The notes: generated by a model not told the origin, from the sequence alone. A stretch of DNA of 64,000 nucleotides from Acidobacteriota bacterium (GCA_036337765.1 JAYZDP010000139.1:13923-77922), one strand, 5' to 3'. Shown: positions 47,173 through 63,103, counted from the first letter of the stretch. Translations and numbers: made by a program.

Positions 47173-48846
47173 CTAGGGGTCTTCTATCCGTGTGCCGGCG
47201 CCGGCTACTAGTTCGTGGTAGCTGCCGACCTGGATGTCGGAGAAACGCTCGCGGCGGCCGTCTGGCCAACGCACGACGACCGAGACCTTCTTCTTTGCGG
47301 CCTCGCCGAGGGCGATGACCACTCGGGGGTCGCGGGCGGAGGCGTAGCTGCCGTCGGTGTGGACTATGCGCGTGGCTGCGGCGGGGCCTTCTAGCTCGGC
47401 GAAGACGGTGGCTCCGTGCGCGTCTCGGCCACCGGCTTGGAGGCGCAGGCGTAGGCCGATCCATGGCCGTGAGGTGTCGGCTTCGTTGCGCAGCGCCTGG
47501 ACGGGGCCGCTGTTGTTGGTGACGACGACGTCGGTGTCGCCGTCGTTGTCGATATCGCCAAAAACCGCGCCGCGGCTGACCCCGGAGACCGCGAAGGCGG
47601 GGCCGGCGACGGCGGTGACGACGTAGAACTCACGCCCACCGTTGGAGCGAAAGAGCTGGTTGTTCTCGTCGAGAGGGTACGGATCGGCCTGCCTGTCCGA
47701 GCCTGGCGGAAAGGTCACTCCGCCGTTGACGACCAGCAGATCGAGCCAGCCATCGAGGTCGTAGTCGACGAACCCGGTGCCGAAAGACGTGTAGCTCCAG
47801 CTCGGCGTGGCCAGGCCCGCCATCTCTGTCGAGTCCTCGAAAAAACCCCGGCCGTCGTTGACGTACATGGTGTTGGTTTCGCGGCTGAAGTGGGTCATGA
47901 AGATGTCGACGTCACCATCGGCATCGAAGTCCGCCGCGTCGACGCCCATCGACGCTTCCGCTCGACCCTCGGAGTTCAGCGAGCTCCCGGACGCCAGGCC
48001 CTGGTTGCGAAACCTGCCGTCCCCCTGATTGATCCACAGCTGGTTGGGCGTCAGATCGTTGGCGATGTAGAAGTCGACGAGACCGTCGCCGTCGAAATCC
48101 GCCGTCGACACGCCGAGCCCGTTTCCCGGCTCCTGGGTAAGGCCGGCCCTGGCGCTGACGTCGGCGAACGAGCCGTCACCGAGATTGCGGTACAGGCGGT
48201 CGGCGGCCGGGCCGTAGGCCTTCGGCAGGCAGTAGTCGTGCACACCGCGCTCGTTGAGGCAGGTCTTGTGCGCGCCGTAGGAGTACGTCAGGTAGTTGGC
48301 GACCACCAGGTCGAGCCAGCCGTCGGCGTCTAGGTCGACAAACGACGCGGAGCTTGAGAAGCGCGCGTCGCCCACTCCGGCGCGTGCCGTTGCGTTCTCG
48401 AAGCGACCCTCGCCGAGGTTGCGCCAGAGCTGATTGGCACCGAAGTTGGTGACGTAGAGATCGATATGGCCGTCGCTATCGTAGTCGCCCGTCGCGACAC
48501 CGATGCCGTAGCCCACGGCCTCGATGCCGCTCGCCTCGGTGACATCGACGAACTGCGCCACGCCATCGGTGAGGTCGTTGCGAAACAGTCGATCACGCAG
48601 CGGAAGGGGCTCGCGCGGCGGCACGATCGCGTCGTCCAAGGTGAGGCCAGGGCCGAGCATCGCGCCCTGGACGAGGTAGAGGTCGAGGTCGCCGTCACCG
48701 TCATAGTCGAACAGCGCCCCGCCGCTGCCGACCACCTCCGGATAGTAGAGGCGTCCCGACATGCCGTTGAAGTGGTGAAACGACAGCCCCCATTCCGCGG
48801 TCGCGTCCGAGAACGGCGCGGCTGCCGGCAGTAGCACTAACGACAT
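47173..48846 (-). CDS. CRTAC1-family FG-GAP/ASPIC-UnbV protein (type A)
   Basis: Many DxDxDGxxD repeats; C..DYC motif; UnbV GSYASARDPR...V.WPDG. Confidence 0.88.
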   Translation of the reverse strand: MSLVLLPAAAPFSDATAEWGLSFHHFNGMSGRLYYPEVVGSGGALFDYDGDGDLDLYLVQGAMLGPGLTLDDAIVPPREPLPLRDRLFRNDLTDGVAQFVDVTEASGIEAVGYGIGVATGDYDSDGHIDLYVTNFGANQLWRNLGEGRFENATARAGVGDARFSSSASFVDLDADGWLDLVVANYLTYSYGAHKTCLNERGVHDYCLPKAYGPAADRLYRNLGDGSFADVSARAGLTQEPGNGLGVSTADFDGDGLVDFYIANDLTPNQLWINQGDGRFRNQGLASGSSLNSEGRAEASMGVDAADFDADGDVDIFMTHFSRETNTMYVNDGRGFFEDSTEMAGLATPSWSYTSFGTGFVDYDLDGWLDLLVVNGGVTFPPGSDRQADPYPLDENNQLFRSNGGREFYVVTAVAGPAFAVSGVSRGAVFGDIDNDGDTDVVVTNNSGPVQALRNEADTSRPWIGLRLRLQAGGRDAHGATVFAELEGPAAATRIVHTDGSYASARDPRVVIALGEAAKKKVSVVVRWPDGRRERFSDIQVGSYHELVAGAGTRIEDP

Positions 48847-48875: not shown

Positions 48876-51059
48876 TCAGTGCTCACCCCCGAGGCTGAGC
48901 TCGGCGACGGACACCGCCACGAGCTCGGAGCTGCCCTCCACGACCCGGTAGACGTGATTGGCGGCCACGTCGGCGAAGACCTGAGTCGGTCCGGGAGCGG
49001 GCCAACGGACGGTCAGGCGCTCGATCGAGCTCGCCTCGCCGATTCCCAACTCCTGCTGCAGGCTAGACCCGCCGAAGGAGCCGCCACCGCCCACCAGCGC
49101 GTGAAACGACCGATTTCCCCCTGGGCCCGAAACCTCGAGCTCGATGCGGGCTCCGACGCCGAAGGAGTTGGCACGCGCACCTTCGAGCCGCAGTGTGACC
49201 CAGTTTCCTCCGCCGCCGGGATTCTCGAACAGGCTGTTGGCGTAGGTGTCGCCGGGATAGAAACCGCCGAGCTGATGGAAGAGGTCCTGATCGCCGTCGT
49301 TGTCGACGTCGCCGAAGGCCACGCCATGGCCCTTCTGGATGTGCGCGAAACCACCGACGAAGCTGACGTCGACGAAGCGCCCGGCAGTGTTGCGGTACAT
49401 GACGTTCGGCATCAGGCTCGCCAGGTCCGGCTCGCCGGTGCCGAGATAGATGTCGAGCCAGCCGTCGTTGTCGAGGTCCCCGTAGTTGGCGCCCATCGGC
49501 ATCAGCGGGCGCTCGAGGCCGACCTCGGCGGAGACCTCGGTGAAACGCCCGCCGTCGTTGCGATAGAGCAACGGTTGCCCGTCGTCGAACGACAGACCGA
49601 AGTAGGAGCCCGAGACCCGCGCGGGCTGCTGGCGGTAGTCGGCGACGAAGATATCGAGGTCGCTGTCGTTGTCGTAATCGAAGAACCACGCCGGGAAGCT
49701 CTCGCGCACCGGAGCCGTGACTTCCAGCTCCGGCGCCACGTCGACGAAGCGCCCGCCGCCGTCGTTGCGGTACAGGCGGTTCTCGCCGATGTTCGAAACG
49801 TAGAGATCGGGATCGCCGTCGTTGTCGTAGTCGCCCCAGGTCACCGCCTTGGTGTAGCGGTTGTTGGTGACTCCGGCCGCCGCCGCCACCTCACGGAAAC
49901 GCCCGTCGCCCTCATTGCGGAACAGCTGGTTCGGAAAGGCGTGAAGGAAGGTCCACTCGTTGCCGACGTAGACGTCGAGGTCGCCGTCGGCATCGTAGTC
50001 GGCCCAGGCGGCGGTGCCGGAGGCGAAGGCCGGCTCCGCCATGCCCGCGGCGCGGGTCACATCGACGAACTGTCCCACCTGGGTGTCGAGCTGGTTGTGC
50101 AGCAGTGAGTTGCGGATCCGGCCCTCACTCAGCAACCAGGCACCGCGCAAGACCAGCAGATCGAGCATGCCGTCGTCGTCGTAGTCGGCCTGCACCAGGT
50201 TGAGCCCGCCCAGCTGCCCGCTGAGGCCCCAGGCTTCGGTGACGTTCTCGAAGCCGCCACGCCCGTCGTTGCGGTAGGCCTTCATCGCGTCGCACGGATC
50301 CCAGGTCGTCGCCAACAGGTCCAGATGCCCGTCGCCGTCGAAGTCGTCCATGACCGCTCCACCCGCGAGATCGACCTCCGCCAGCCCCAGCTCCGGAGCC
50401 CGGTCGCGCCATCGGTCGAGCTGGGCATCGTTGGCGAGCGCGCCCGCCGGCAGCCGCAGGTTCTCCGGCACTCCGTCGGGCCAGTCGCCCGAGACCTGTC
50501 GAACCACGTTCAGCAACCACGCAGCCTGAACGTTGCGCGGGTGCCGGCCAGCGTAGTCCGCCAGTACGTCGCCGGCCCTTCGAGCGGCCTCGGGGCGGGT
50601 GTGGATACCCTCCTTCGTCACCGGCAACAGGCACGAGGCGGCATTGTGGTGGCCGATGCAGTTCTGGTCCTCGGCGAGCTGGATCCAGGCCAGAGCCAGG
50701 TGCCACTCGAGCGACGACACCAGCCCTCCCTCGGGCGCCGACGTGGCAGACACCTCGGCCAGGGCCTCGTCGAGCAGCTCGATGGCCGCCGCAGGATCAC
50801 CTAGCTTGAGCCTCTCCCGGGCCAGAATCCCTTTCCACCCTGCGCGCGTCGCCACATCTCCGCCGCCGGTCTCGAGCTGGGCCGTCGTCTCGAGCGCCAG
50901 GCGGTCGCTGAAGTAGAGGTTGTCGCCGGTTCTCAGACGCTCACAGACGGCCTCGAAAGTCTCGGCGCCTCTCGCGCCGGTTCCCGCAAGGACCGCCACG
51001 ACGGCGACTAGAAAGCGGAATGCCACGCCGCCAAGGCGCCCTGAAGCCAGAGCCGACAT
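48876..51059 (-). CDS. CRTAC1-family protein with N-terminal TPR-like region (type B)
   Basis: NCIGHHNAASC motif; FG-GAP repeats; HIQKGHG; GGSFGG UnbV domain. Confidence 0.88.
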   Translation of the reverse strand: MSALASGRLGGVAFRFLVAVVAVLAGTGARGAETFEAVCERLRTGDNLYFSDRLALETTAQLETGGGDVATRAGWKGILARERLKLGDPAAAIELLDEALAEVSATSAPEGGLVSSLEWHLALAWIQLAEDQNCIGHHNAASCLLPVTKEGIHTRPEAARRAGDVLADYAGRHPRNVQAAWLLNVVRQVSGDWPDGVPENLRLPAGALANDAQLDRWRDRAPELGLAEVDLAGGAVMDDFDGDGHLDLLATTWDPCDAMKAYRNDGRGGFENVTEAWGLSGQLGGLNLVQADYDDDGMLDLLVLRGAWLLSEGRIRNSLLHNQLDTQVGQFVDVTRAAGMAEPAFASGTAAWADYDADGDLDVYVGNEWTFLHAFPNQLFRNEGDGRFREVAAAAGVTNNRYTKAVTWGDYDNDGDPDLYVSNIGENRLYRNDGGGRFVDVAPELEVTAPVRESFPAWFFDYDNDSDLDIFVADYRQQPARVSGSYFGLSFDDGQPLLYRNDGGRFTEVSAEVGLERPLMPMGANYGDLDNDGWLDIYLGTGEPDLASLMPNVMYRNTAGRFVDVSFVGGFAHIQKGHGVAFGDVDNDGDQDLFHQLGGFYPGDTYANSLFENPGGGGNWVTLRLEGARANSFGVGARIELEVSGPGGNRSFHALVGGGGSFGGSSLQQELGIGEASSIERLTVRWPAPGPTQVFADVAANHVYRVVEGSSELVAVSVAELSLGGEH

Positions 51060-51135
51060 CGCGTCAGTATAGCTAGCAGCGGTCGGCGACGCTCCTGCCG
51101 GACAAGGCGACAAGGGCCTTTGCTAGCATCGCTCC

Positions 51136-52950
51136 ATGGCACGTTTCGCGGTCGTGATGGCCCTCTGCGCGGGCCTCGTAGCCTGCGGCCCGAGCGGTCG
51201 CAGCACGCCGTCGAACGGCGTCGGAGAGATCCCCGGGGACGCCCTCACGCAACCGGCGTTCGCTACCGACGACGATCCTGCAGCCCTGGTCGATCCGAGC
51301 CGCGACGGCTGGGACAGCGAGATCCTCAGCGCCGCCGCCGAGCAGCAGCTCTACCGCCTGGCGAACTGGCTCGCCGATCCCGCAAAAGAGGCCATCGACG
51401 TCGCTGGGCACGACTTCGCATCGTCGGTGCTGGCTCCCGAAACACTGTCGGAGCACTACTCGGACGGGGTCGTGACCGTGCGGCAGGGGACGATCGATTC
51501 CCGGGCCGTCGAACACCGTGGGCCGACGGGGCTGGCCGACGGAATCGATCGACAGAGGCGCCGGGTCGACGGCTTTGACCAGCGGAGGGCGACTCTGAAG
51601 CAGTTCAGGATCGAACTCGAAGAGTCGAGCTTCGTCACCCGGTCGTACTTCGAGCTGTCGGGAAGCCGCGAAGCTGGCGCCAAACAGATCAACTCGCTGT
51701 GGACCACCCGCTGGCAGCTCCCCGAGAGCACGGACGACGCGCCCCTGCTGATGGCAATCACGGTCGCCGACTACGAGGAGACGGAGACGCGCTCGGCGGA
51801 GCAATACGAGGACGTCACAGCGGCGGCGATCGGTCACAACCGCAGCTACGGGGAACAGATCCTCAAGGGCCCCGAGCACTGGCTGAGCCGGCTCACCAAG
51901 GGCCACGGTTTCTCCAAGGACGGCTGGCACGGCGTGTCGGTCGCCGACGTCGACGGCGACGGACTCGAGGATCTGTTCCTGGCCGAGCAGGGCGGGCTGC
52001 CGAACCGGCTATTCGTCCAAAGCGCCATCGGCACTTTCGACGACCGCTCGTCGGAGGCGGGCATCGACTTCCTGGAGCGCACCCTCGCCGGCCTGTTCGT
52101 GGATCTCGACAACGATGGCGATCAGGACCTGGTGCTGTCGCACCGGCCCGCGGTGCTGATCCTCGAGAACGACGGCAACGGCCGCTTCCAGGACGTCCGC
52201 TTCGTCGCCGGCGCGATTCCCGACAGCCACTCGGTGTCGGCGGCCGATTTCGACCTCGACGGCGACCTCGACCTCTACGTGTGCGCGTACCGCCGCGCAC
52301 CCAACGAGCGCGGCCTAGCCAGCCCTGTGCCCTACCACGATGCCAATAACGGTGGACGCAACGCTCTGCTGCGCAACGACGGCGGCTTCCAGTTCACCGA
52401 CGTGACGGCCGAGACCGGCCTCGACGCCAACAACCGCCGGTTCAGCCTGGCTGCCGCCTGGGAGGACTTCGACAACGACGGCGATCCTGACCTCTACGTC
52501 GCCAACGACTACGGCCGCAACAACCTGTACCGCAACGACGCCAAAGCGGGCGGGCAGTTGCGCTTCACCGACATCGCCGCCCAGGCCGGCGTAGAGGATG
52601 TGTCGTCGGGGATGTCGGTGAGCTGGGCCGACTACGATCGCGATGGTCGGATGGACGTCTACGTCGGCAACATGTTCTCGGCCGCCGGCAACCGCATCAC
52701 CTACCAGCGAAAGTTCGACGCGTTGCGTCGGCGGGCAGGTCCGCTGGCCGAAGTGCAGCGGATGACTCGCGGTAACTCGCTGTTTCGCAACGCCGGTCCT
52801 GCTACTTTTCACGACCGCAGCGAAGCCGAGGCCGTCACCATGGGGCGCTGGTCGTGGTCGTCGCTCTTCGCCGACATCAACAACGACGGCTGGGAGGACC
52901 TCGTGATCGCCAACGGCAACCTCACCCAGACCAACCCCGACGACTTGTGA
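51136..52950 (+). CDS. FG-GAP beta-propeller lipoprotein; N-terminal part of a probable UGA-recoded CDS 51136..55362
   Basis: LVAC lipobox; DxDxDG repeats; ends mid-propeller at PDDL-TGA, in frame with the next ORF. Confidence 0.85.
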   Translation: MARFAVVMALCAGLVACGPSGRSTPSNGVGEIPGDALTQPAFATDDDPAALVDPSRDGWDSEILSAAAEQQLYRLANWLADPAKEAIDVAGHDFASSVLAPETLSEHYSDGVVTVRQGTIDSRAVEHRGPTGLADGIDRQRRRVDGFDQRRATLKQFRIELEESSFVTRSYFELSGSREAGAKQINSLWTTRWQLPESTDDAPLLMAITVADYEETETRSAEQYEDVTAAAIGHNRSYGEQILKGPEHWLSRLTKGHGFSKDGWHGVSVADVDGDGLEDLFLAEQGGLPNRLFVQSAIGTFDDRSSEAGIDFLERTLAGLFVDLDNDGDQDLVLSHRPAVLILENDGNGRFQDVRFVAGAIPDSHSVSAADFDLDGDLDLYVCAYRRAPNERGLASPVPYHDANNGGRNALLRNDGGFQFTDVTAETGLDANNRRFSLAAAWEDFDNDGDPDLYVANDYGRNNLYRNDAKAGGQLRFTDIAAQAGVEDVSSGMSVSWADYDRDGRMDVYVGNMFSAAGNRITYQRKFDALRRRAGPLAEVQRMTRGNSLFRNAGPATFHDRSEAEAVTMGRWSWSSLFADINNDGWEDLVIANGNLTQTNPDDL

Positions 52951-52978
52951 AGCTTCTTCTGGCGGCAGGTCGTGCCGC
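52948..52978 (+). promoter_or_regulatory. In-frame UGA with a candidate bacterial SECIS hairpin
   Basis: TGA at 52948-50, an 11-nt spacer, then GCGGCA-GGTCG-TGCCGC (52962-52978). Confidence 0.7.
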
Positions 52979-55362
52979 GCGCCCCACGAGCCCCGGGCGA
53001 CGCCTCGGTCGGCGACTATCTAGACTCGCTCGCCGACCTCCACGAGCGCCTCGACGAGGGCATGTCGTGGAGCGGCTCCGAGCGCAACTGCGCCTATCTG
53101 AATCCGGGCCGTCCGGACGCCTCGCGCTTCGCCAATGTCTCTGCCGTCAGCGGGCTGGACTTCGACGACGACGCGCGCGGCCTCGCCGCCTTCGATTGGG
53201 ACCACGATGGCGATGTCGACCTCGCCCTGTCGAACCGCACGGCGCCGCGGCTGCGCCTGATGCGCAACACCCATCCGAACGCGACGGCATCGATCGTGGT
53301 GGAAGTCGCCGGCGACGGCACGCGCACCAACCGTGACGGAGTCGGCACCCGCATCGCGCTTGACACCGACCAGGGGACCATGGTGCGCAGTGTCCGTGCC
53401 GGCGACGGCTTCCTCTCGCAGTCGTCGAAGGCGGTCCATTTCGGCCTCGGCTCGGCGACGCCGCGCGGAGAGCTGACGGTCACCTGGCCAGGCGGCGGCA
53501 CGGAGACCTTCCCCGTTCCCCGACCCGGCAGCCGCGTCCGCCTGGTTCAAGGCTCGGGCCTTGCACGTGAGGTCGCAGCCCGCGACCTCACCGCCGATCT
53601 CCTGTCATCGTCGCAGCGCCCCGACGCACCCACCACCGGGGAACGGATCGTTCTGCCAACGCGGCCTCCCGCTCCCTCGCTGACCATCGAGGCGTACGCG
53701 GAGGGAGAGGTCCGACCCGTCGAGATCACCGCCAAGCCAACCCTCATCAATTTCTGGGCGAGCTGGTGCATCCCCTGCCGCGGCGAGCTCGAAGATCTCG
53801 CCGACAGCGCTGCGAGCCTCGAGAGCGCGGGCCTGGAGATCGTCGCTCTGGCGACCGACGGCCTGGGCGAGGATCCCCCGACCACGGCAGCCGACGCCGA
53901 GGCGTTCATGGCGCGCATCGATTTCCCGTTCACCCACGGCCGTGCCACGGCAGAGACTCTGGACAAGATCGAGATCGTCAAGCGCTATCTCTTCGACCGA
54001 CGGTTCCCACTGTCGCTGCCCTTCTCGCTCCTAGTCGACGCGCAGGGCAATGCTGCGGCCCTGTACCGTGGCGGCCTCGAGAGCGCCGATCTGATCGCCG
54101 ACCTCGACCACATGTTGCCGGCCACCGCCGTGGAGCGACGCGACATGTCGGTGCCCTTCTCCGGCAGGTGGTTCGCGGAACCCCGGCAACGAGCCGCCGT
54201 CGGTCGCTACGCGCGATGGTTCGAGGACGACTATCCCGACGAGTCGCTGGCACTGCTCGAGCGCGCCGTCGAGCAGGCGTCCGAGCGGCTGGACAGCGCT
54301 CACGAGAGCTTCGAGAAGGTCGACGCCCGCAACGAGCTCTTTGCCGCGTACAAAGACCTGGCCCGGATCGAGCACGAGCTCGACCGCCATGAGCCGGCCG
54401 CGCGCCACTACCGGGCGGCGCTCGAGCTCGAGCCACGAGATCCAGCGGCCCGCACGGCGCTTCTCGGCGTGCTGCGTTCCATCGGCGAGCACGGCGAGCT
54501 CGAGACCCTGCTCACTCGTTGGCTGCGGGAGGACTCCGGCAACGTCGAGCTACATGTGCGACTCGCGGAGCTGCTGGAGGACAACAATGACCTAGCGGGC
54601 GCGACGCGTGAGCTCGGCCGAGCCGTCGCGCTCCGACCCCAAGACGCGGATCTTCACTTCCTCCTGGGTCGAACGTTGGCACGGCAGAGCTCGATGCCCG
54701 CCGCCCTGGAGCAGTTCGAGGCCACCGTCGCTCTTGCCCCGGGCGACGCGGAGGCGCACTTCTTCGCCGGCGTCGTCGCGGCCGGGATGGGGCGCGGCGA
54801 GAAGGCGCTGGATCACCTCGGCAGAACTCTCGTGCTCGACCCCGGCCATCGCAACGCTCGGTTCGAGAGCGCCAGGGTGCTGACGGGGACCGGACGCGTC
54901 GAGGCCGCGATACCGCTGTATCAGGCGATCGTCGGTGAGGACCCCGAGGACGCCGCGGCGCACAGCGGGCTCGGGCTTGCGCTCGTGCAAGCGGGACGCC
55001 ACGAGGAGGGTGGCGTGCACGTGCGCCGGGCCTACACCCTGGACCCGCAGTTCCTCGGCACGGGTAACAGCGCGGCCTGGATCATGGCCACCCATCCGGA
55101 CGCGCGCTACCGCAACGGAGCGCAGGCATTGCTGATCGCCGAGGAGCTCAACGCCAGAACCGAGAACCGGGAGCCCGCGCTGCTCGAGACCCTGGCCGCC
55201 GCCCAGGCCGAGGCGGGAGCCTTCGACGACGCCGTAGCAACCGTAGAGCGAGCGATCGAGCTGGTCGGTTCCTCCGGCCAGACGCGCGCGGCGCAGCAGC
55301 TCGCCTCCCGGCTCCAGCTCTACCGCAGCCGGCGCCCGTTCCGCGACCCAGGGCTGGGTTAG
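52951..55362 (+). CDS. Last FG-GAP blade, ASPIC/UnbV, TlpA-like redoxin (WCIPC) and TPR repeats; C-terminal part of the probable selenoprotein
   Basis: SFFWRQVV..., DWDHDGDVD, AGDGFLSQSS, INFWASWCIPC and a TPR array. No own RBS or signal peptide. Confidence 0.85.
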   Translation, partial: SFFWRQVVPRAPRAPGDASVGDYLDSLADLHERLDEGMSWSGSERNCAYLNPGRPDASRFANVSAVSGLDFDDDARGLAAFDWDHDGDVDLALSNRTAPRLRLMRNTHPNATASIVVEVAGDGTRTNRDGVGTRIALDTDQGTMVRSVRAGDGFLSQSSKAVHFGLGSATPRGELTVTWPGGGTETFPVPRPGSRVRLVQGSGLAREVAARDLTADLLSSSQRPDAPTTGERIVLPTRPPAPSLTIEAYAEGEVRPVEITAKPTLINFWASWCIPCRGELEDLADSAASLESAGLEIVALATDGLGEDPPTTAADAEAFMARIDFPFTHGRATAETLDKIEIVKRYLFDRRFPLSLPFSLLVDAQGNAAALYRGGLESADLIADLDHMLPATAVERRDMSVPFSGRWFAEPRQRAAVGRYARWFEDDYPDESLALLERAVEQASERLDSAHESFEKVDARNELFAAYKDLARIEHELDRHEPAARHYRAALELEPRDPAARTALLGVLRSIGEHGELETLLTRWLREDSGNVELHVRLAELLEDNNDLAGATRELGRAVALRPQDADLHFLLGRTLARQSSMPAALEQFEATVALAPGDAEAHFFAGVVAAGMGRGEKALDHLGRTLVLDPGHRNARFESARVLTGTGRVEAAIPLYQAIVGEDPEDAAAHSGLGLALVQAGRHEEGGVHVRRAYTLDPQFLGTGNSAAWIMATHPDARYRNGAQALLIAEELNARTENREPALLETLAAAQAEAGAFDDAVATVERAIELVGSSGQTRAAQQLASRLQLYRSRRPFRDPGLG

Positions 55363-55383: not shown

Positions 55384-56724
55384 CTACCTGGCTCTGCGGT
55401 AGCGATCAAGCTGCTGGCGATACTCACGCAGCTCGTGGGGCGGCGCGCCGGTCTCCTGGATGACCGTGAGGGCCTGTGCCATGCGCTGCGCGGCCTCGGG
55501 ATAGCGACCGACGTCGGCGAAGGCGGCAGCGAGATCGACGAACAGCTGCGCCATGACCGGCGCCATCAAGGACTCACGGTTGCGCATTGCGTAGGCATGG
55601 TCGAGGTGGCCGATCATCAAATCGATCTCGTTGCGCTGCGCCGCACCCATCGCCGACAGCACGAGCATGTGGAGGTTGTCGGGATCCTCCTCCAGGACCT
55701 CGGCGGCGATCGGCTCGGCCTCGTCGAAGCGCTCGAGCTTAAAGAGCGCCGACGCCAGCACCGGCTTCGCGACCGCCAGGTCCGGATCGGCGGCCAGGGC
55801 CTTCTGCACCGCGTGCAGGGCCTTGGCGGCGTCCCCCGTCCGATCGTAGAGGCCGGCGGCGAGAAACCAGGCCTGTGCGTGATCGGGTGAGAAGTCGAGC
55901 ACCGCCTCGACCTCGGCCCGCGCGCGCGACAGGTCGCCGACGTCGGCGTAGGTCCGGCTACGACGAAGATAGCTGGTCGAGTCCACGGCGAGAGCTTCGA
56001 CGCCGGCCCGAATCGAGTCCTTGTGGGGGAGCGTACGTGGCAGCGATCGCGCCTCCTGCGCCTTCTGTCTGGCGGCTTCACGATCTCCCGTCAGAGCGTA
56101 GGCACGCGCCAGGGTCGCCACGGTCGCCTGAATGCCTGCGTCGATCCGATAGGCCTGCTCGAGGTGTCGCACAGCCTCTTCGACCCTGCCTGCGGCGAGG
56201 GCCAGGCGCCCGAGTCCGAGCGGGCCGAGGGGGTCGGTCGGATCGAGATCGGAAGCGCTGCGGTACTGGACCTCGGCGTCGGCATCGCGGCCGACTACCT
56301 CGAGAGCCTGTGCGTAGCGGATGCGGCTCGGGGCGTAGGCGGAGTCGAGCGCGGTCGCTCGCTCGTACCAACCCAGTGCCTCCTCCGGGCCCGAGTACTC
56401 GAGCAGGGTTGCGAGCAGGTAGGGCCAGCGCACGTCGCGATCGTCGAGTGCGAACGCTTCGCGATAGGCCGCGGCGGCCTCCGTCGGAAGGTGGTGGGCA
56501 TCGAGAATCATCCCGTAGCGACCCCAGGAATCGGCATCGCCCGTGGCGTCGGCAACAGCCTGACGCGCCGCGCCGATCGCCTCCTCGACCCTCGCCTCCA
56601 CGCCCTCGAGATCGGGGCTAGGGATCTCGGCGGTGCTCGCGACGCCGGCGCACAAGAAGACTGCCGCGACACCGGCCCAACCGGATGGGACCCGATAGAC
56701 TCCAACCTCCCTCAACGCCCCCAT
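55384..56724 (-). CDS. Exported TPR-repeat protein
   Basis: Hydrophobic N-terminus and multiple TPR helical repeats. Start uncertain. Confidence 0.8.
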   Translation of the reverse strand: MGALREVGVYRVPSGWAGVAAVFLCAGVASTAEIPSPDLEGVEARVEEAIGAARQAVADATGDADSWGRYGMILDAHHLPTEAAAAYREAFALDDRDVRWPYLLATLLEYSGPEEALGWYERATALDSAYAPSRIRYAQALEVVGRDADAEVQYRSASDLDPTDPLGPLGLGRLALAAGRVEEAVRHLEQAYRIDAGIQATVATLARAYALTGDREAARQKAQEARSLPRTLPHKDSIRAGVEALAVDSTSYLRRSRTYADVGDLSRARAEVEAVLDFSPDHAQAWFLAAGLYDRTGDAAKALHAVQKALAADPDLAVAKPVLASALFKLERFDEAEPIAAEVLEEDPDNLHMLVLSAMGAAQRNEIDLMIGHLDHAYAMRNRESLMAPVMAQLFVDLAAAFADVGRYPEAAQRMAQALTVIQETGAPPHELREYRQQLDRYRRAR

Positions 56725-59161
56725 GAGCGTCTTCGAAGGCATCCGTCTAGTCGATCTCAGCGGCACAGTTGCGACGTCCTACTGCGGCAAGCTCTTCGCG
56801 AGCTTCGGGGCAGACGTTATCAACGTGGAGCCGCCGGGCACGGGCAATCCGACCCGATCGTTGCCACCGTTCGGCGACGCTGCCGACCCCCCGGAGTCAA
56901 GCGCCCTCGCAGGCTGGCTCGATGCCGGCAAACGCTCCGTCGTCGCCGATCTGGGAAGCGATGAAGGGCGCGAGCACGCTCGTGCCCTGATCGCGGGGGC
57001 GCAGATCGTCATCGAGGGCCACCGGCCAGGAGCTCTCGCCGCCAGGGGGATCGACCCCGAGAGCCTCGACTCCAGCCTGTCGGCGCCGATCGTGGCCTCG
57101 ATCAGCTGGTTCGGCCAGACCGGACCCTGGGCGCAGTTCGAGGCCACCGACGCCACCATCCACGCCCTGATCGGTCAGGTACGCGGCTTCGGACCTCGAG
57201 AGGGTCCGCCGCTGGCTCCTGCCGGTTACGAAGTGCAGACCATCGGCGGACTGACCGCGTTTGTGGCGATCGTCGGACAGCTCATCGGACTCGAGCGCGG
57301 CTCGATCTCCCGGCCAGGCCATCTCGACATCAGCCTCTACGAGGCCGCCCTGTGCCTGGTCGAGGTTGGTGCGGTCGCATCGCACAACATCGACGAGCCG
57401 CCGAAGCCGCGCCTCGGCCTGAACCGTTACTGGCCTACCTTTCCGGCCGGTATCTACGCCTGCCGGGATGGTTGGGTGGGCATCACCGCCCTTCTTCCGA
57501 CTCAGTGGCGTAGTTTCTGCGAGTTGATCGGAGCGCCAGAGATCGCCGACGAAGCGCGCTTCGCGCTCCACGCCGATCGGCACGAGGCCGCCGACGAGCT
57601 CGACGCGATCTTCACCGAGAAGCTCGCTGCTCGAGACGCCGAGTACTGGTTCCACGAGGGGCAGAAACGCCGCATTCCGCTGGCAATGGTGCCGACCATG
57701 GCCGACCTGCTCGAGTGCGAGCAGTTCGTCGAGCGCGGTGCTTTCGGCGAGATCCACCATTCCGAGCTCGGCGCGTACCGCGCGCCCGGCGTTGGGTTCC
57801 GCCACCAGCTGACGCCGGCCATCGCGGATGGGCGGGCGCCGCGGCTCGGTGAGCACAACCTCGAGGTGGCGGCATCGGATCACCGCCCACCTGACAGCTC
57901 GAACAGCAACCGTCAGGACGAGGGCGGGAAGGCCCGAAGACCGCTCCACGGTCTGCGGGTCGTCGACCTGTCGATGGGCTGGGCCGGGCCGCTTGCGGCG
58001 CGGCACTTGGCCGACCTCGGGGCCGAGGTGGTCAAGGTCGAGTCGTGCAGCCACTTCGACTGGTGGCGTGGCTGGGAAGTGACCGAGGAAGTGCTTGCCG
58101 ACAACGGCCTCGAGAAGTCCTGGGCGTACCACAGCGTCAACCGCAACAAGCTCGACGTCACGCTCGAGCTCACCAATGACACGGCCACCGATCTGCTCAA
58201 GCGCCTGGTCGCGACCGCGGATGCCGTGGTTGAGAACTTCGCCGGCACGGTTTTGCCCAAGCTCGGCATCGGCTACGAAGTCCTTCGCCGGCACAACGAG
58301 AAGATCGTCATGCTGTCGATGCCGCCCTTCGGCGCCAGCGGCGACTGGCGCGGCTACCGAGCCTACGGCTCGACCGTCGAGCAAGCGTCGGGCCTACCTC
58401 ACCTGCAGGGCTATGGCGATTGGCCACCGATCATGCAGCACGTGGCACTGGGTGACCCGATCGCAGGGCTCAACGGCGCCGCCGCCGCGGTCGTCGGCCT
58501 GTTCCATCAGCAGCGCACCGGCGTCGGGCAGCTCGTCGATCTGTCGCACGTCGAATGCCTCTTTCCGTTCGCCGCGAGCGGTCTAGTCGCGGAGAGCCTC
58601 GGCAGCACGCTCCCCAGAAGGCACGGACACCGCCACCCTCACTACGCGCCGCACGGCGTCTACCGCTGCGCCGGAGAGGACCGCTGGCTCGTCGTCAGTG
58701 TCACGAGCGGCGAAGTGTGGCGGGCCTTGGCAGGCTGCGTGCCGGGGCTCGACGATCCGGCACTCGACAACATCGACGAGCGACGGCGACGCCACGACGA
58801 GATCGATGGCGCCGTTTCCCACTGGGCCATGGACCGCGTCGACACCGAGCTAGTCGAGGAGCTGCTGGCCGCGGGGGTCGCGGCGGCGACGGTGCGCCAC
58901 TCCAGCGCGCTGTTGACCGACCCGCAGCTCACGGCGCGCGAGTTCTGGCAGTGGGCCGAGGGAGAAGTCGTCGGCCGCCAGCCCAACCCCTCCGCCCCCT
59001 ACCGCATTGACGGTCGCTACCCTGAGGTGCGCTGGCAGGCCCCGACGCTGGGCGGTCACAACCGCGAAGTCCTACACGGAATGCTCGGCCTCTCGGACGA
59101 TGAGCTGGCCCGACTGGCGAGCGACGGCATCATCGGCACCCGTCCGACAGCCAAGAGTTAG
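56723..59161 (+). CDS. Tandem two-domain CaiB/BaiF CoA-transferase
   Basis: Two class III domains (GADVINVEPP...GKRS; LGAEVVKVES...NRNK, ENF). Confidence 0.9.
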   Translation: MSVFEGIRLVDLSGTVATSYCGKLFASFGADVINVEPPGTGNPTRSLPPFGDAADPPESSALAGWLDAGKRSVVADLGSDEGREHARALIAGAQIVIEGHRPGALAARGIDPESLDSSLSAPIVASISWFGQTGPWAQFEATDATIHALIGQVRGFGPREGPPLAPAGYEVQTIGGLTAFVAIVGQLIGLERGSISRPGHLDISLYEAALCLVEVGAVASHNIDEPPKPRLGLNRYWPTFPAGIYACRDGWVGITALLPTQWRSFCELIGAPEIADEARFALHADRHEAADELDAIFTEKLAARDAEYWFHEGQKRRIPLAMVPTMADLLECEQFVERGAFGEIHHSELGAYRAPGVGFRHQLTPAIADGRAPRLGEHNLEVAASDHRPPDSSNSNRQDEGGKARRPLHGLRVVDLSMGWAGPLAARHLADLGAEVVKVESCSHFDWWRGWEVTEEVLADNGLEKSWAYHSVNRNKLDVTLELTNDTATDLLKRLVATADAVVENFAGTVLPKLGIGYEVLRRHNEKIVMLSMPPFGASGDWRGYRAYGSTVEQASGLPHLQGYGDWPPIMQHVALGDPIAGLNGAAAAVVGLFHQQRTGVGQLVDLSHVECLFPFAASGLVAESLGSTLPRRHGHRHPHYAPHGVYRCAGEDRWLVVSVTSGEVWRALAGCVPGLDDPALDNIDERRRRHDEIDGAVSHWAMDRVDTELVEELLAAGVAAATVRHSSALLTDPQLTAREFWQWAEGEVVGRQPNPSAPYRIDGRYPEVRWQAPTLGGHNREVLHGMLGLSDDELARLASDGIIGTRPTAKS

Positions 59162-60894
59162 GGTAGATCGCTCGTTCCGGTGCCTCGGGCGAGCGTCACG
59201 GTTTGGCGGGCCGCGGCCCCGGGGAAGCTCTCACGAGTACCGTCGGGCCAGCGCACCTCGAAACGGTCGACCTTCTCGGCTGCGGCGAGGCCGAACCAGA
59301 CACTGAGCGGGCTCGAGGTCAGGTAACCGCCAGAGGCCTGCACGAGGCGCAGCAGCCGCAGCTCACCGACATGCGCGACTACCTGAGCTCCAGGCGAGCC
59401 ACCGTGCTCGAGGTCGTCGAGCACGACCTCGATCCACCCTGAGGAGTTCCCACCGTCGTTTCGCCACAGGCGGGCGCGGCCCTCGATCTGCGTCGTCAGA
59501 AGATCCAGGTCGCCGTCGCGGTCCAAGTCAGCAGCCACCAGCCCACGGCTGACCTCGACAGATTCCCCCCAGGCACCGGTCTCGCCAGTCACGTCGAGGA
59601 ATCGGCCGCCGCCTACGTTCTCCAGCAGGCTGTTGGGCTCGGCATACAGGTGGAGACTCGTCGCCGGGTGCGCCAGTGTCGTGGGGCGCTGCTTCACCGC
59701 ACCGTTGACGACCACCAGGTCGAGATCGCCGTCGTTATCGAGATCTGCGAGCGCGTCACCGAAGCCGGTATAGGGAATGCTCGCCACGCCGAGGCCGCTG
59801 GTGCCGGTGGCGTCCTCGAAGCCGGCATCATTGCGATTCTCGTAGAAGGTGTTGGTCTCCTCGATGAGATGGCTGACGAAGACGTCTGCGTCCGCATCGC
59901 CGTCTAGGTCGCCAATAACCACTCCCATGCCGCCCTCGGCCACGCCGTAGCGGTTGAACGCCAACCCCACGAGCAGCGCGTCTTCGACGAAACGGCCGTC
60001 CCCCTGGTTGGTCCACAGGTGGTTGGGGTCGGCGTCGTTGGCGACGTAGAGATCCAGCTGGCCATCGGCGTCGAAGTCGTGACACAACACTCCCAGTCCG
60101 GCATCGGCCAGGGTCGCGATACCTGAGCTACGTGAGCGGTCTTCGAAGCGGCCGTCGCCCCGGTTGCGGTAGAGCCGATCGGAGAGGCCTTCGAAACGCA
60201 CCGGGCCGCAGTAGTCGACACGGCCGCCTTCGACCCGGCACTCGGTACCGGGGTCGTAGTCGACATAGCGGGCAACGAACAGGTCGAGCAGCCCGTCGCC
60301 GTCGACATCGCAGAACACGGCCGAGGTAGACCATCCCTCGTCACCGACGCGGGCACGGTCGGTAATGTCTCGAAAGTGACCGGAGCCATCGTTGAGGTAG
60401 AGAGAGTCGCGACCCCAGTTCGAGACGAAGAGATCGGTATCGCCATCGTTGTCGATGTCACCCGCGGCGGCTCCCATGCCATAGCGATCGTCGCCGAGGC
60501 CCGAGTCAGTGGTTGCGTCGACGAAGCTGCCATCGGTCTGTTGGAGAAAGAGCGCGTTCGCGGCGCCCGCCGGGCCCCGATCCGCGGGGAAGCGCTCGCC
60601 GCCGTTGATCAGAAAGACGTCGAGATCGCCGTCGCCCTCGGCATCGAAGACCGCGGCGCCGCTCCCCATGATCGCCGGCATCGGTGTCTCGAGCCCGGCG
60701 CCCGCGTAGTGGCGGAACTCGAGCCCGGACTCGGCCGAGATCTCGACCCACGAGACCCGGCTGGCGAGCTCTCCGACAGAACCCGCGGCGCGGTCGCCGC
60801 GGCCACTGGTCCCCGGGCCGGCGTCATCAACGCAGGCGGCCGCTGCGGCCACCAGCAGCACGACCGCGGCTGACCGCCCGTTGTCAGCTCCCAT
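59158..60894 (-). CDS. CRTAC1-family FG-GAP/ASPIC-UnbV lipoprotein (type A)
   Basis: AAAC lipobox; FG-GAP repeats; C..DYC motif; GGYLTSS...VRWPDG. Confidence 0.88.
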   Translation of the reverse strand: MGADNGRSAAVVLLVAAAAACVDDAGPGTSGRGDRAAGSVGELASRVSWVEISAESGLEFRHYAGAGLETPMPAIMGSGAAVFDAEGDGDLDVFLINGGERFPADRGPAGAANALFLQQTDGSFVDATTDSGLGDDRYGMGAAAGDIDNDGDTDLFVSNWGRDSLYLNDGSGHFRDITDRARVGDEGWSTSAVFCDVDGDGLLDLFVARYVDYDPGTECRVEGGRVDYCGPVRFEGLSDRLYRNRGDGRFEDRSRSSGIATLADAGLGVLCHDFDADGQLDLYVANDADPNHLWTNQGDGRFVEDALLVGLAFNRYGVAEGGMGVVIGDLDGDADADVFVSHLIEETNTFYENRNDAGFEDATGTSGLGVASIPYTGFGDALADLDNDGDLDLVVVNGAVKQRPTTLAHPATSLHLYAEPNSLLENVGGGRFLDVTGETGAWGESVEVSRGLVAADLDRDGDLDLLTTQIEGRARLWRNDGGNSSGWIEVVLDDLEHGGSPGAQVVAHVGELRLLRLVQASGGYLTSSPLSVWFGLAAAEKVDRFEVRWPDGTRESFPGAAARQTVTLARGTGTSDLP

Positions 60895-63103
60895 CGATCA
60901 CCTCCAGGACCGAAGATCCCTCCACCAGTCTGTAGACACGATCCACCGCAACATCGCCGCTGAACACCTGAGTGGTGTCGGTGGTGGGCCAATGAACTTC
61001 GATATGGTCAATGTCGAGAGCCCTGCCGATACCCACAGTCTGCCGCAGCGGGTTGCCGCCGAAGCTCGATCCGCTCGACACCCAACGGTAGGCGTCGCGC
61101 GAAGTCCCCCCGAGAGATGTTGTGACCCGAATGCGGGCACCGATCGCGGAGCGGTTGGAGGTCTTCCCGACCAGCTCCAGCGCAATCCAATGGTTGCCAA
61201 AGCCCGGATTTTCGAACAGGGCATCTCCGAAGCGATCGCCAGGGAAGGCCCCGCCCATCTGCTCGAAGATGTCGAGATCGCCATCGCCGTCGATGTCGCC
61301 GAAGGCCACAGCGTGGCCCTTCTGCAGGTGGCCGAGCCCGGCCGGTACGGTGACGTCGGCGAAGCGAACGCCGCCGCGGTTGTGGTACAGCACGTTCGGC
61401 ATCAGCGCCTCGTAGTCGGGATACCCCGTCCCCAGGTAGAAGTCGAGATAGCCGTCGTTGTCGAGGTCGCCGAAGTTCGACCCCATCGGCAGGTGGAGGC
61501 GCTCGAGGCCCACGCTCGCGGCCACATCACGAAACCCGCCACGCCCGTCGCCCTTGTAGAGCTTGGCCACCTCCCACGGACCCTCGATGCCGAGCGCACT
61601 CGCCGCGACGAAGGCGACACCGTCCACGTCGCCCTTGTAGCTCGAGACGTAGAGATCGAGGTCGCCGTCGTTGTCGAAGTCCCAGAACCAGACCGGAAAG
61701 CTCTGCTGCGGACCCTGCACTCCCGCCTGGGCGGCGACGTCGCGAAAGGTGCCGTCGCCCTCGTTGTGAAACAGGCGATTCGGCCCTCCGAGGACGGAGA
61801 CGTAGAGGTCGGGATGGCCATCGGCGTCGTAGTCACCCCAGGTGACTCCCTTGACGAAGGCTTCCACCGCAACGCCCGCGACCTCTGCAACGTCGGTGAA
61901 ACGGCCGTCACCCGCGTTGCGAAAGAGCTGACTGCGCGCCGACGCCTCCGGGTCGGGAAGGTGTTCGTTGCCGACATACAGGTCGAGGTCGCCGTCGTTG
62001 TCGTAGTCGGCCCAGGCGGCGGTCTGCGTCGGATAGTGCTGCTCGCCAAGACCGGCGGCGAAGGTGACGTCGACGAACACGCCATCGTCGTTGCGCAGCA
62101 GCGAGTTCGGATGCCGCCCCTCCCCCGCAAACCAGGCGCCCCGCAGCACGTAGAGGTCGAGGTCGCCATCGTTGTCGTAGTCGGCATGGGTGACGTTGAG
62201 ACCCCCATAAAGACCCTCGAGGCCGGCCGCCGCGGACCTGTCCTCGAACGTCCCGTCTCCAGAGTTCAAGAACAGGTGCGGCTGCCCCGCGGTGTCGAAG
62301 GTGGTGGTGAAGACGTCGAGGTCGCCGTCGCCGTCGAGGTCGTCGAGCACCGCTCCGCCCGACAGATTGAAGGTATCCAGCCCCTTCGCCGGAGCCACGT
62401 TCGTGAAGTGCGGAAAGGACGCGGCGGAGCCGAAGACCTCCAGGGGCAGCTGCCACTCCTCCTCCAGGGAGTCCGGATACTCCCCCAACGTCATCGCCGC
62501 GATGTTGAGCAGCCAGACGGCTTTGACGTAGCGGGGTGAGGAGCGTGGTGTCACTCCAAGGTACTCTCGTAGGTAGCGCTGAGCTTGCCGCGAGCCGTCT
62601 TTCTCAACATGGACGCCTTGTGCGCGGATCGGCAGGATGCACGAGTCGGCGTTGTGTCGCTTGGCGCAGTTCTCGGTCTCCGCGAAACGCAGGTTGGCGA
62701 CGGCGAGCCGAAACAGCGTCTCCGCGGACTCCCGCGACGGTACTGCCGCGAGCTCGGGCAGAAGCGTGCGAGCGGCCTGCAGCCGCTCGATCGCGACTGC
62801 CTCGTTGCCGAGGCGCAGCTCGTGCTCCGCCACCTCGGCCAGCAGCCGCCATCGTGCCTCGGCAGGAGCGCTACCCTCTAGCGCGTCGATCAGCAGCCTG
62901 CGGGAGTCTCGAGCGGGGCCCTCGCCGAACCACGGATTCTCCTCGTCGGTGGCGAGCCGAATCGCCTCGAGCTCGGCGAGCATGCGGCGATGGCTCTCAC
63001 GGGCCGCAGTCGGCGTGATCGGATCGGCCCCGCCGAGGACTCCTGGCAGCGCCAAAGTCCAAAGAACGAGCAGACAAGCTGCCGACGACCGAAAGATCCT
63101 CAC
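60884..63103 (-). CDS. CRTAC1-family protein with N-terminal TPR-like region (type B)
   Basis: Signal peptide; NCAKRHNADSC; HLQKGH; SGSSFGGN UnbV domain. Confidence 0.88.
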   Translation of the reverse strand: MRIFRSSAACLLVLWTLALPGVLGGADPITPTAARESHRRMLAELEAIRLATDEENPWFGEGPARDSRRLLIDALEGSAPAEARWRLLAEVAEHELRLGNEAVAIERLQAARTLLPELAAVPSRESAETLFRLAVANLRFAETENCAKRHNADSCILPIRAQGVHVEKDGSRQAQRYLREYLGVTPRSSPRYVKAVWLLNIAAMTLGEYPDSLEEEWQLPLEVFGSAASFPHFTNVAPAKGLDTFNLSGGAVLDDLDGDGDLDVFTTTFDTAGQPHLFLNSGDGTFEDRSAAAGLEGLYGGLNVTHADYDNDGDLDLYVLRGAWFAGEGRHPNSLLRNDDGVFVDVTFAAGLGEQHYPTQTAAWADYDNDGDLDLYVGNEHLPDPEASARSQLFRNAGDGRFTDVAEVAGVAVEAFVKGVTWGDYDADGHPDLYVSVLGGPNRLFHNEGDGTFRDVAAQAGVQGPQQSFPVWFWDFDNDGDLDLYVSSYKGDVDGVAFVAASALGIEGPWEVAKLYKGDGRGGFRDVAASVGLERLHLPMGSNFGDLDNDGYLDFYLGTGYPDYEALMPNVLYHNRGGVRFADVTVPAGLGHLQKGHAVAFGDIDGDGDLDIFEQMGGAFPGDRFGDALFENPGFGNHWIALELVGKTSNRSAIGARIRVTTSLGGTSRDAYRWVSSGSSFGGNPLRQTVGIGRALDIDHIEVHWPTTDTTQVFSGDVAVDRVYRLVEGSSVLEVIDGS

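Follow-up and report, generated by a model that had tools for sequence, protein, structure and literature searches.

The question raised by positions 51136–55362 of the window (the whole 64,000-nucleotide stretch of Acidobacteriota DNA that was analysed) is whether they hold two neighbouring genes or a single gene in which one in-frame UGA codon is decoded as selenocysteine (Sec). An earlier note, made from the sequence alone, had favoured the single gene, and nearly every check that it proposed came out in support. We conclude that 51136–55362 is very probably a genuine, unannotated selenoprotein gene, in which UGA-605 would be decoded as Sec to yield an exported lipoprotein of ~150 kDa. Many genomes, from at least five phyla, have kept the UGA together with its reading frame and a downstream hairpin; the hairpin fits the consensus of the bacterial selenocysteine insertion sequence (bSECIS) given in the catalogue PMC13188914, and its pairing is kept by compensatory changes; and Sec machinery is encoded in the window's genome or in close relatives.

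One reading frame across a conserved UGA codon

The open reading frame (ORF) 51136–52950, which encodes 604 residues, and the ORF 52972–55362 lie in a common frame and are separated by a single TGA at 52948–52950, with NPDDL before it and SFFWRQVVP after it. Read through, the frame gives 1408 residues followed by TAG, and the recoded residue is number 605 (...TNPDDL-U-SFFWRQVVPRAP...). This layout had been described in the earlier note and holds after recomputation. In the Pfam scan of the read-through protein, the four stretches assigned to FG-GAP_3 are all located upstream of the TGA, and the UnbV_ASPIC domain, the AhpC-TSA/redoxin domain and, C-terminal of the redoxin, the TPR (tetratricopeptide) repeats come after it; because of this placement, the TGA separates the last of the FG-GAP repeats from the UnbV domain. 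The redoxin active site reads W874-A-S-W-C878-I-P-C881, the previously noticed WCIPC motif being placed at C878/C881 by alignment. The read-through protein matches the solved human CRTAC1 structure (9etn_A) with an E-value of 1.6e-18, and of 4e-30 when a profile is used. At the N-terminus of the 604-residue ORF, a signal peptide and the lipobox LVAC with Cys17 were recognized by eye, and signal peptides or lipoboxes are also present in relatives.

Four paralogues, at 47173–48846, 48876–51113, 59158–60894 and 60884–63103, all on the minus strand, flank the gene. Each of them carries FG-GAP_3 together with UnbV_ASPIC in one unbroken frame, so that the earlier statement that UnbV lies after the TGA here and is contiguous with the propeller in the four paralogues is borne out by Pfam. 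The alignment to these four is of low quality at the junction, and their residue at the Sec column cannot be read from it. Many further FG-GAP/UnbV_ASPIC paralogues are found elsewhere in the window's genome, and the TGA-bearing gene is present there in one copy only.

Conservation of the TGA was followed through several samples. When 60 relatives and the window's own genome were compared, the best 30 loci had one TGA each, in the same alignment column in all 30, at a local identity of 33–72%. Among 125 related loci (one row per locus; L085 and L089, from unpublished genomes, are left out here and in the hairpin, tree, column-residue and tree-aware counts below), 88 have the TGA in the column, four have it displaced in the alignment by one or two residues, and 33 have sense codons. 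TAA or TAG was found at the Sec column in none of the 125. Two matches showing one TAG among the relatives turned out to be distant paralogues, with the TAG outside the column. Of 401 genomes sampled evenly from the phylum, 87 match at E ≤ 1e-40, and 59 of the 401 have a match with one TGA (hand count). A degenerate pattern (TGA plus 24 nt) retrieved at least 120 stretches from species-representative genomes, and of the 80 pattern loci checked, 78 have an in-frame TGA within a homologous gene, at this same column, and two lie at a locus edge. The pattern loci come from Acidobacteriota, Planctomycetota, Verrucomicrobiota, Latescibacterota and Eisenbacteria; their titles name Roseibacillus, Akkermansiaceae and Verrucomicrobiales on the Verrucomicrobiota side, as well as Pirellulaceae, Planctomycetaceae, Phycisphaerae, Holophagales, Thermoanaerobaculia, Bryobacterales, Terriglobia and Candidatus Multivorans. 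It is thus clear that the TGA is kept at this codon in many genomes, a check that had been suggested from the outset (88/125 loci, 78/80 pattern loci, five phyla).

Parts of the stretch were also found in 20 metagenome runs from 14 studies, mostly of marine or seawater origin. Contigs from three sequencing runs other than that of the assembly span 52948–52950 with no differing letter. In run X2, the summed contig depth rises from 6–10 to ~250 exactly over 52936–52983, with many contigs having unlike flanks, which means that other organisms in those samples share the ~40-nt TGA-plus-hairpin segment nearly letter for letter. The maximum of nucleotide conservation in the metagenome contigs coincides exactly with the TGA plus the hairpin. 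In three seawater or marine runs, a rise in summed depth of ~10- to 40-fold was seen confined to 52936–52983. One RNA run, X18, covers 52600–52708 only, not the UGA.

These data bear on two ways of dismissing the TGA. The first takes it for a sequencing or assembly error in a metagenome-assembled genome; this is refuted by the best 30 loci, by the 78 of 80 pattern loci and by the three independent runs with the same letters, and with the TGA present in dozens of independent genomes its probability is practically nil. The second takes the TGA for a true stop, so that the locus would consist of two genes or of a truncated pseudogene, the products being a propeller lipoprotein of 604 aa and a 796-aa protein with its own start. 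Public gene callers do annotate two ORFs, namely a 'VCBS repeat-containing protein' of 608 aa that ends at the TGA and a 'tetratricopeptide repeat protein'. In the best 120 database matches, the close relatives are ~800-aa C-terminal halves bearing the latter name, and many N-terminal halves in the database, one of them named 'VCBS repeat-containing protein', stop exactly at residue 604. However, the frame is kept across the TGA in 30/30 of the best loci and 78/80 pattern loci, the stop is always TGA and never TAA or TAG, as the earlier note had asked of relatives, and the conservation peak sits on the TGA and the hairpin. The break also interrupts a set of domains that homologues carry contiguously. 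The downstream ORF lacks a Shine-Dalgarno sequence, as judged by eye, and has no signal peptide although its domains are of exported type. A true stop is, in our view, extremely unlikely.

The downstream hairpin and the selenocysteine machinery

A 17-nt hairpin, GCGGCA-GGTCG-TGCCGC, begins 11 nt past the TGA, where the earlier note had seen it, and folds in isolation at −10.0 kcal/mol. The bSECIS consensus, according to the Fig. 2 legend of PMC13188914, has a loop of 3–9 nt with G in the first two loop positions, a stem of 4–16 bp, a UGA-to-loop distance of 16–37 nt and a minimum free energy of at most −7.5 kcal/mol. With its 5-nt loop starting with GG, its 6-bp stem, its distance of 17 nt and its energy, the hairpin agrees with this consensus in every respect. 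It also resembles the E. coli fdhF element. The K-12 record shows TGA, 11 nt and then GGTTGCAGGTCTGCACC, so that the start 11 nt past the UGA, the heptamer GCAGGUC and the G-U in the apical loop are the same in both; unlike the fdhF element, which has a bulged U and a 4-nt GGUC loop, the hairpin studied here has no bulge, a 5-nt loop and an uninterrupted 6-bp stem, and is embedded in a conserved WRQVV peptide by which it is partly fixed. The comparison with fdhF made at the outset, including the common core and the absent bulge, was therefore correct.

Pairing in the hairpin is maintained across subfamilies A and B of the family (defined below). In 73 unique TGA-bearing sequences (L158 was dropped from the alignment owing to an N in its sequence), 87.5% of the cells pair in a 7-bp helix. 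The pair 18–28 occurs as CG in 36 sequences, GC in 20, GU in seven, UA in five and AU in three, i.e. in five pair types, and is unpaired in two. Its variation is driven by column 18, which is a silent position (the third base of an Arg codon); three codons further on, column 28 falls on the first base of a Pro/Ser/Ala/Thr codon. The covariation score is 0.227, compared with 0.089 for shuffles (0 of 500 reach the observed value) and at most 0.081 for slid-partner controls; this is strong but is not to be read as a probability, because related sequences inflate such scores. All six core pairs are present in 60 of 74 unique TGA-bearing sequences, versus one of 24 unique sequences without TGA in the same peptide register, and eleven further TGA-bearing sequences (Ala-Ala variants) keep four pairs and re-pair after a bulge, as seen by eye. 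G-U is found at loop positions 2–3 in all sequences but two, which have GGGCG. In subfamily C, the hairpin is GCGC-GGTC-GCGC, ~20 nt past the TGA, and two sequences of this subfamily were seen by eye to have a synonymous change on both sides of the stem, GGC to GGT with GCG to GCA.

The window's genome, a 3.99-Mb assembly in 235 contigs that is 90.4% complete, encodes most of the factors for Sec insertion. A selB gene scores 330 bits against a cut-off of 242, and a tRNA-Sec gene (selC) scores 73 bits and is called SeC with anticodon TCA by ARAGORN. The best selD gene (G000:C157:628-1551, L001; 362 bits) carries an in-frame TGA of its own, so that SelD probably counts among the selenoproteins of this genome. 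Another selD-like gene, which has no stop, lies on a different contig (G000:C59:2333-3247, L002) and scores 258 bits. As for selA, it exceeds the cut-off in five of five relatives tested, in 299 of the 401 genomes of the phylum sample, and is present in 54 of the 59 TGA-carrier genomes of that sample (hand count). As regards the genetic code, TGA terminates 18 of the 36 long frames in the window, and is therefore a normal stop in this genome.

We propose that decoding follows the ordinary bacterial route. SelB with Sec-tRNA(Sec) would bind the GGUCG-loop hairpin 11 nt past the UGA when the ribosome is on the UGA, Sec would be inserted, and translation would run on through the UnbV, redoxin and TPR domains. 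What is unusual lies elsewhere: in the fold of the protein, its export, its non-Cys homologues and a SECIS embedded in the codons of a conserved peptide.

Several points weigh against the reading of the locus as a selenoprotein gene, and those that touch its relation to the fused redoxin are given in the next section. First, the folding energy does not set the hairpin apart from shuffled GC-rich sequence (z = 0.65): among 200 dinucleotide shuffles of the 43-nt stretch, 148 are as stable or more so. It is the conservation, not this energy, that excludes a chance origin. Second, the hairpin is partly dictated by the conserved WRQVV peptide, and the earlier caution that it might be in part a by-product of the WRQVVP codons was well placed. 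One locus, L094 (G145:C389), with GAG (Glu) in the column and no TGA, has a full GCGCCA-GGTCG-TGGCGC hairpin, which indicates that WRQVV codons can form a SECIS-like hairpin without a UGA; a hairpin of this type may be where the gain of a Sec site begins. Third, two TGA-bearing loci depart from the common form, namely L083 (G379:C67; SFFWRQGV), with a degenerate hairpin of four core pairs only, and L054 (G014:C2), with a 7-bp hairpin, a GGGC loop and a shifted register. These may be decaying copies or alternative SECIS forms. The expectation that the hairpin occurs only in TGA-bearing copies thus stands for the great majority of sequences, and fails for L094 on the one side and for L083 and L054 on the other. 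Fourth, selA was not found in the window's 90.4%-complete genome (best score 31 bits against a cut-off of 268), so that the set of sel genes which the earlier note proposed to look for is present except for this one. Four other genomes with the TGA form (G140, G366, G283 and G307) likewise have no detectable selA or SepSecS. When sought as a substitute for selA, SepSecS was not found in G000, G366 or G283 and reached 24–25 bits in G140 and G307. Even in G140, which is 99% complete, and in G283, which is in six contigs, no selA scored above the cut-off. Either the gene is divergent or unassembled, or Sec-tRNA is made by another route. Finally, the column is occupied by D, E, S, N or A instead of Cys in most uninterrupted homologues, which is atypical of catalytic Sec.

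The absence of a detectable selA in the window's genome and four other carriers is also what might be expected if the UGA were read through by a standard residue (near-cognate Trp, Cys or Arg), or were a leaky regulated stop, with the hairpin acting as a read-through stimulator; and the presence of selenium in the protein is predicted from sequence. Nevertheless, in loop and spacing the hairpin fits both the consensus of SelB-type elements and fdhF of E. coli, tRNA-Sec, selB and selD are all encoded here, and tRNA-Sec is present at 68–76 bits in each of the four carriers without selA. Together with the selA genes of nearly all carrier genomes in the phylum sample and the complete lack of TAA and TAG at the site, this makes standard-residue read-through very unlikely, and Sec insertion remains the reading that we adopt below.

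The residue at codon 605 and the fused redoxin

If Sec is inserted at codon 605, what is it for? Three Sec-bearing subfamilies use one common alignment column. Subfamily A has the propeller-UnbV-redoxin-TPR architecture (1200–1450 aa; DDL-U-SFFWRQVV), subfamily B consists of lipoproteins with the redoxin but without TPR (about 920–1060 aa; KDT-U-SxFWR[HQ]VV), and subfamily C has no redoxin and almost no Cys (about 825–845 aa; DDL-U-LPYxxxAVAH). Members L053, L055–L059 and L061 of subfamily C share the extended motif DDL-U-LPYxxxAVAHIDEYK, and its nearest TGA-free kin (L060, L062 and L063) have Glu at the column. Of 303 members with the xxFW motif, 165 are Sec forms and 138 have another residue: E in 35, D in 27, S in 24, A in 16, N in 15, C in five, Q in four and M in four, the remainder being a few Y, H, G, R and L. 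An earlier sample of 53 database proteins gave the same picture of uninterrupted homologues with a sense codon at the column and Cys rare. The contiguous homologues with a sense codon that the earlier note had looked forward to therefore do exist, although those with Cys aligned to the Sec position make up only 5 of the 138. The pattern of D, S, N and E suggests that the column may be a helix N-cap. According to PMC13188914, 'nearly all' selenoproteins have Cys homologues, and a main discovery strategy uses Cys/Sec pairs.

In a FastTree of 169 sequences, the Sec forms occur dispersed among clades that carry other residues, and no fewer than 14 switches between Sec and another residue must be assumed; the tree is rough and midpoint-rooted, so that gain and loss are not distinguishable on it. 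A divergent paralogue, L162 (G152:C1:3999722-4001204), has its TGA two residues earlier, in DG-U-T-C-LWRAVV, and this U-x-C arrangement was seen in no other member.

A comparison of the fused redoxin between Sec forms and other forms gave a marked difference. Of the Sec forms that could be assessed, 114 of 116 have an intact CxxC, as have three of three Cys forms, as opposed to 17 of 82 forms with another residue; 48 Sec forms gave no match, mostly because only 1.5 kb of the locus had been taken. In many of the non-Sec forms the redoxin site has decayed to WATWAPPS or SxxC; eight D forms read WATWAPPS, and eight N forms keep the second Cys only. From this co-occurrence, we propose that Sec605 and the CxxC of the fused TlpA-like domain (C878/C881) form a redox pair. 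Sec605 would serve as a reactive selenolate on the propeller/UnbV body, and the CxxC would re-reduce it outside the cytoplasm.

The proposed coupling is weakened by two observations. In a tree-aware comparison, eight independent pairs on supported branches gave about four that change in the same way, none in the opposite way and four with no difference, which is not significant (median p 0.125) in a test that is underpowered; and subfamily C bears Sec without any redoxin domain. Since the tree-aware result is suggestive only and subfamily C lacks the domain, we regard a redox relay between the two sites as about equally likely to be right or wrong.

The competing view is that Sec is inserted but is not the redox partner of the CxxC, being instead a ligand of a metal, a metalloid or another group, a residue at a tolerant helix-cap or surface site, or a selenium-dependent gate for making the full-length product. 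It is not hard to see the attraction of this view: D, E, S, N, A, Q, H and Y, which occupy the column in uninterrupted homologues, would be typical of ligands or helix caps, and both subfamily C, with almost no Cys, and the non-significant tree-aware test speak for it. In addition, ~70% of the predicted Sec-ligand interactions mentioned in PMC13188914 involve metals. In opposition to it, the CxxC is intact in nearly all Sec forms and decayed to AxxS or SxxC in many non-Sec forms, and the TGA persists in five phyla, although a site under no selection should tend to change to sense codons. A role apart from the CxxC is accordingly a real but minority possibility.

The features of the gene are listed in Table 1. 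A separate 460-aa TPR protein, encoded at 55384–56766 on the minus strand, converges on its 3′ end. When the ORFs of at least 150 aa from the 80 pattern loci were roughly clustered, no conserved neighbour genes emerged, the largest neighbour cluster comprising eight loci once the family itself and its antisense frames had been excluded. An Rfam scan of 52900–53060 returned COG3860 as the sole match, on the minus strand and at chance level (16.8 bits against 42.5).

Table 1. Features of the read-through gene (positions in the window; residues of the 1408-residue product)
Feature	Position	Strand	Basis
Whole read-through coding sequence, 1408 codons plus TAG	51136..55362	+	Frame reading
Signal peptide with lipobox LVAC (Cys17), pointing to an exported lipoprotein	51136..51186	+	By eye
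FG-GAP beta-propeller repeats, residues 266–604	51931..52947	+	Pfam FG-GAP_3, 134 bits (cut-off 26.9); 9etn_A, E 1.6e-18
UGA codon 605, predicted to be read as selenocysteine	52948..52950	+	Column conservation, reads
SFFWRQVV codons; peptide kept with or without Sec, WRQVV codons carrying the hairpin	52951..52974	+	Alignments
SECIS hairpin, 6-bp stem GCGGCA/UGCCGC, loop GGUCG, UGA-to-loop 17 nt	52962..52978	+	Folding, covariation, consensus
UnbV_ASPIC, residues 735–800	53338..53535	+	Pfam, 53.6 bits (cut-off 23.4)
TlpA/ResA-like redoxin, residues 845–980	53668..54075	+	Pfam AhpC-TSA, 38.8 bits (over cut-off); TlpA/ResA models below cut-offs
Redoxin active site C878-I-P-C881	53767..53778	+	Alignment
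C-terminal TPR repeats, residues ~1040–1376	54253..55263	+	Pfam and NCBIfam scans

Relation to known systems and significance

How does this protein compare with what has been catalogued? It shares with the CRTAC1/ASPIC-UnbV proteins (human CRTAC1, PDB 9etn) the order of FG-GAP repeats followed by UnbV_ASPIC, and differs from them in having Sec, a fused redoxin and TPR repeats. With the catalogued TlpA-type selenoproteins (the UGC-containing TlpA and the WAxxUGC ResA-like proteins) it has in common an extracytoplasmic thioredoxin fold of the TlpA/ResA type. In those proteins, as listed in Table 1 of PMC13188914, Sec lies inside the redoxin motif, whereas here the redoxin has an ordinary CxxC and Sec is located 273 residues upstream, in another domain.

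The NCBIfam models for TlpA (38 bits against 230) and ResA (32 against 170) are far below their cut-offs, and the redoxin part is a domain related to TlpA/ResA rather than an equivalog. NF041054 matches weakly (34.5 bits against a cut-off of 300), TsoB gives 16.7 against 805, and no selenoprotein model exceeds its cut-off; nor does NCBIfam hold a model for the propeller-UnbV-redoxin-TPR architecture. In proteins of the Neisseria PilB type, an exported thioredoxin-like domain with a TlpA/DsbE-like CxxC is fused to methionine sulfoxide reductase and recycles the neighbouring catalytic residue. By analogy, our protein would resemble such fusions in having a CxxC domain beside a putative catalytic domain; the latter would be the propeller/UnbV body and not MsrA/MsrB, and sulfoxide reduction is unsupported. 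The MsrA/MsrB bifunctional model NF010625 gives a weak match of 25.6 bits to the redoxin part.

No FG-GAP, UnbV or CRTAC1 family is listed among the 119 prokaryotic selenoprotein families catalogued in 2026 (PMC13188914, Table 1). FG-GAP, ASPIC, VCBS, propeller and tetratricopeptide are not named in the main texts of PMC13188914, PMC13326102, PMC12013277 and PMC9312934, although the supplementary lists of BSepDB or deep-Sep may include the family, and the first four of these terms are not named in the main text of PMC2398784 either. The portion of the literature that was accessible held nothing relevant on Sec-containing UnbV, FG-GAP, VCBS or CRTAC1 proteins, CRTAC1 appearing only in human proteomics co-mentions, and, within the same bounds, no functional study of bacterial UnbV/ASPIC members. 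The family is widespread and new to the catalogues that could be checked. Catalogues and annotation have probably missed it because its Sec column is rarely Cys, which makes it invisible to searches for Cys/Sec pairs.

Tentatively, and with more doubt than confidence, a broader interpretation can be put forward: the family might constitute a previously unrecognised class of extracytoplasmic selenoenzyme, in which a propeller/UnbV-borne Sec and a TlpA-like CxxC act as a two-site redox relay, Sec having arisen at a non-Cys position and the SECIS having been exapted from the coding constraint of WRQVV. Under this interpretation, Sec could arise at a non-Cys position because the WRQVV codons already fold into a near-SECIS at the right distance, and this would explain both the at least 14 switches between Sec and other residues and the failure of Cys/Sec-pair searches to notice the family. 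Such a class, if real, spans more than 100 species of five phyla.

Were the Sec recognised, a large exported protein of marine and soil Acidobacteriota, Planctomycetota, Verrucomicrobiota and others would be annotated correctly, and the prokaryotic selenoproteome would, if the reading is true, gain what is, as far as we could find, its first beta-propeller (CRTAC1-like) family. A blind spot would also be exposed, since the Cys/Sec-pair searches described in PMC13188914 would overlook a family in which homologues have Asp, Glu, Ser or Asn at the Sec column. With a SECIS lying within a conserved peptide motif, the gene offers a concrete case for the origin of new Sec sites, and the co-occurrence of Sec with an intact fused CxxC is a testable lead to the function of the bacterial CRTAC1/UnbV proteins.

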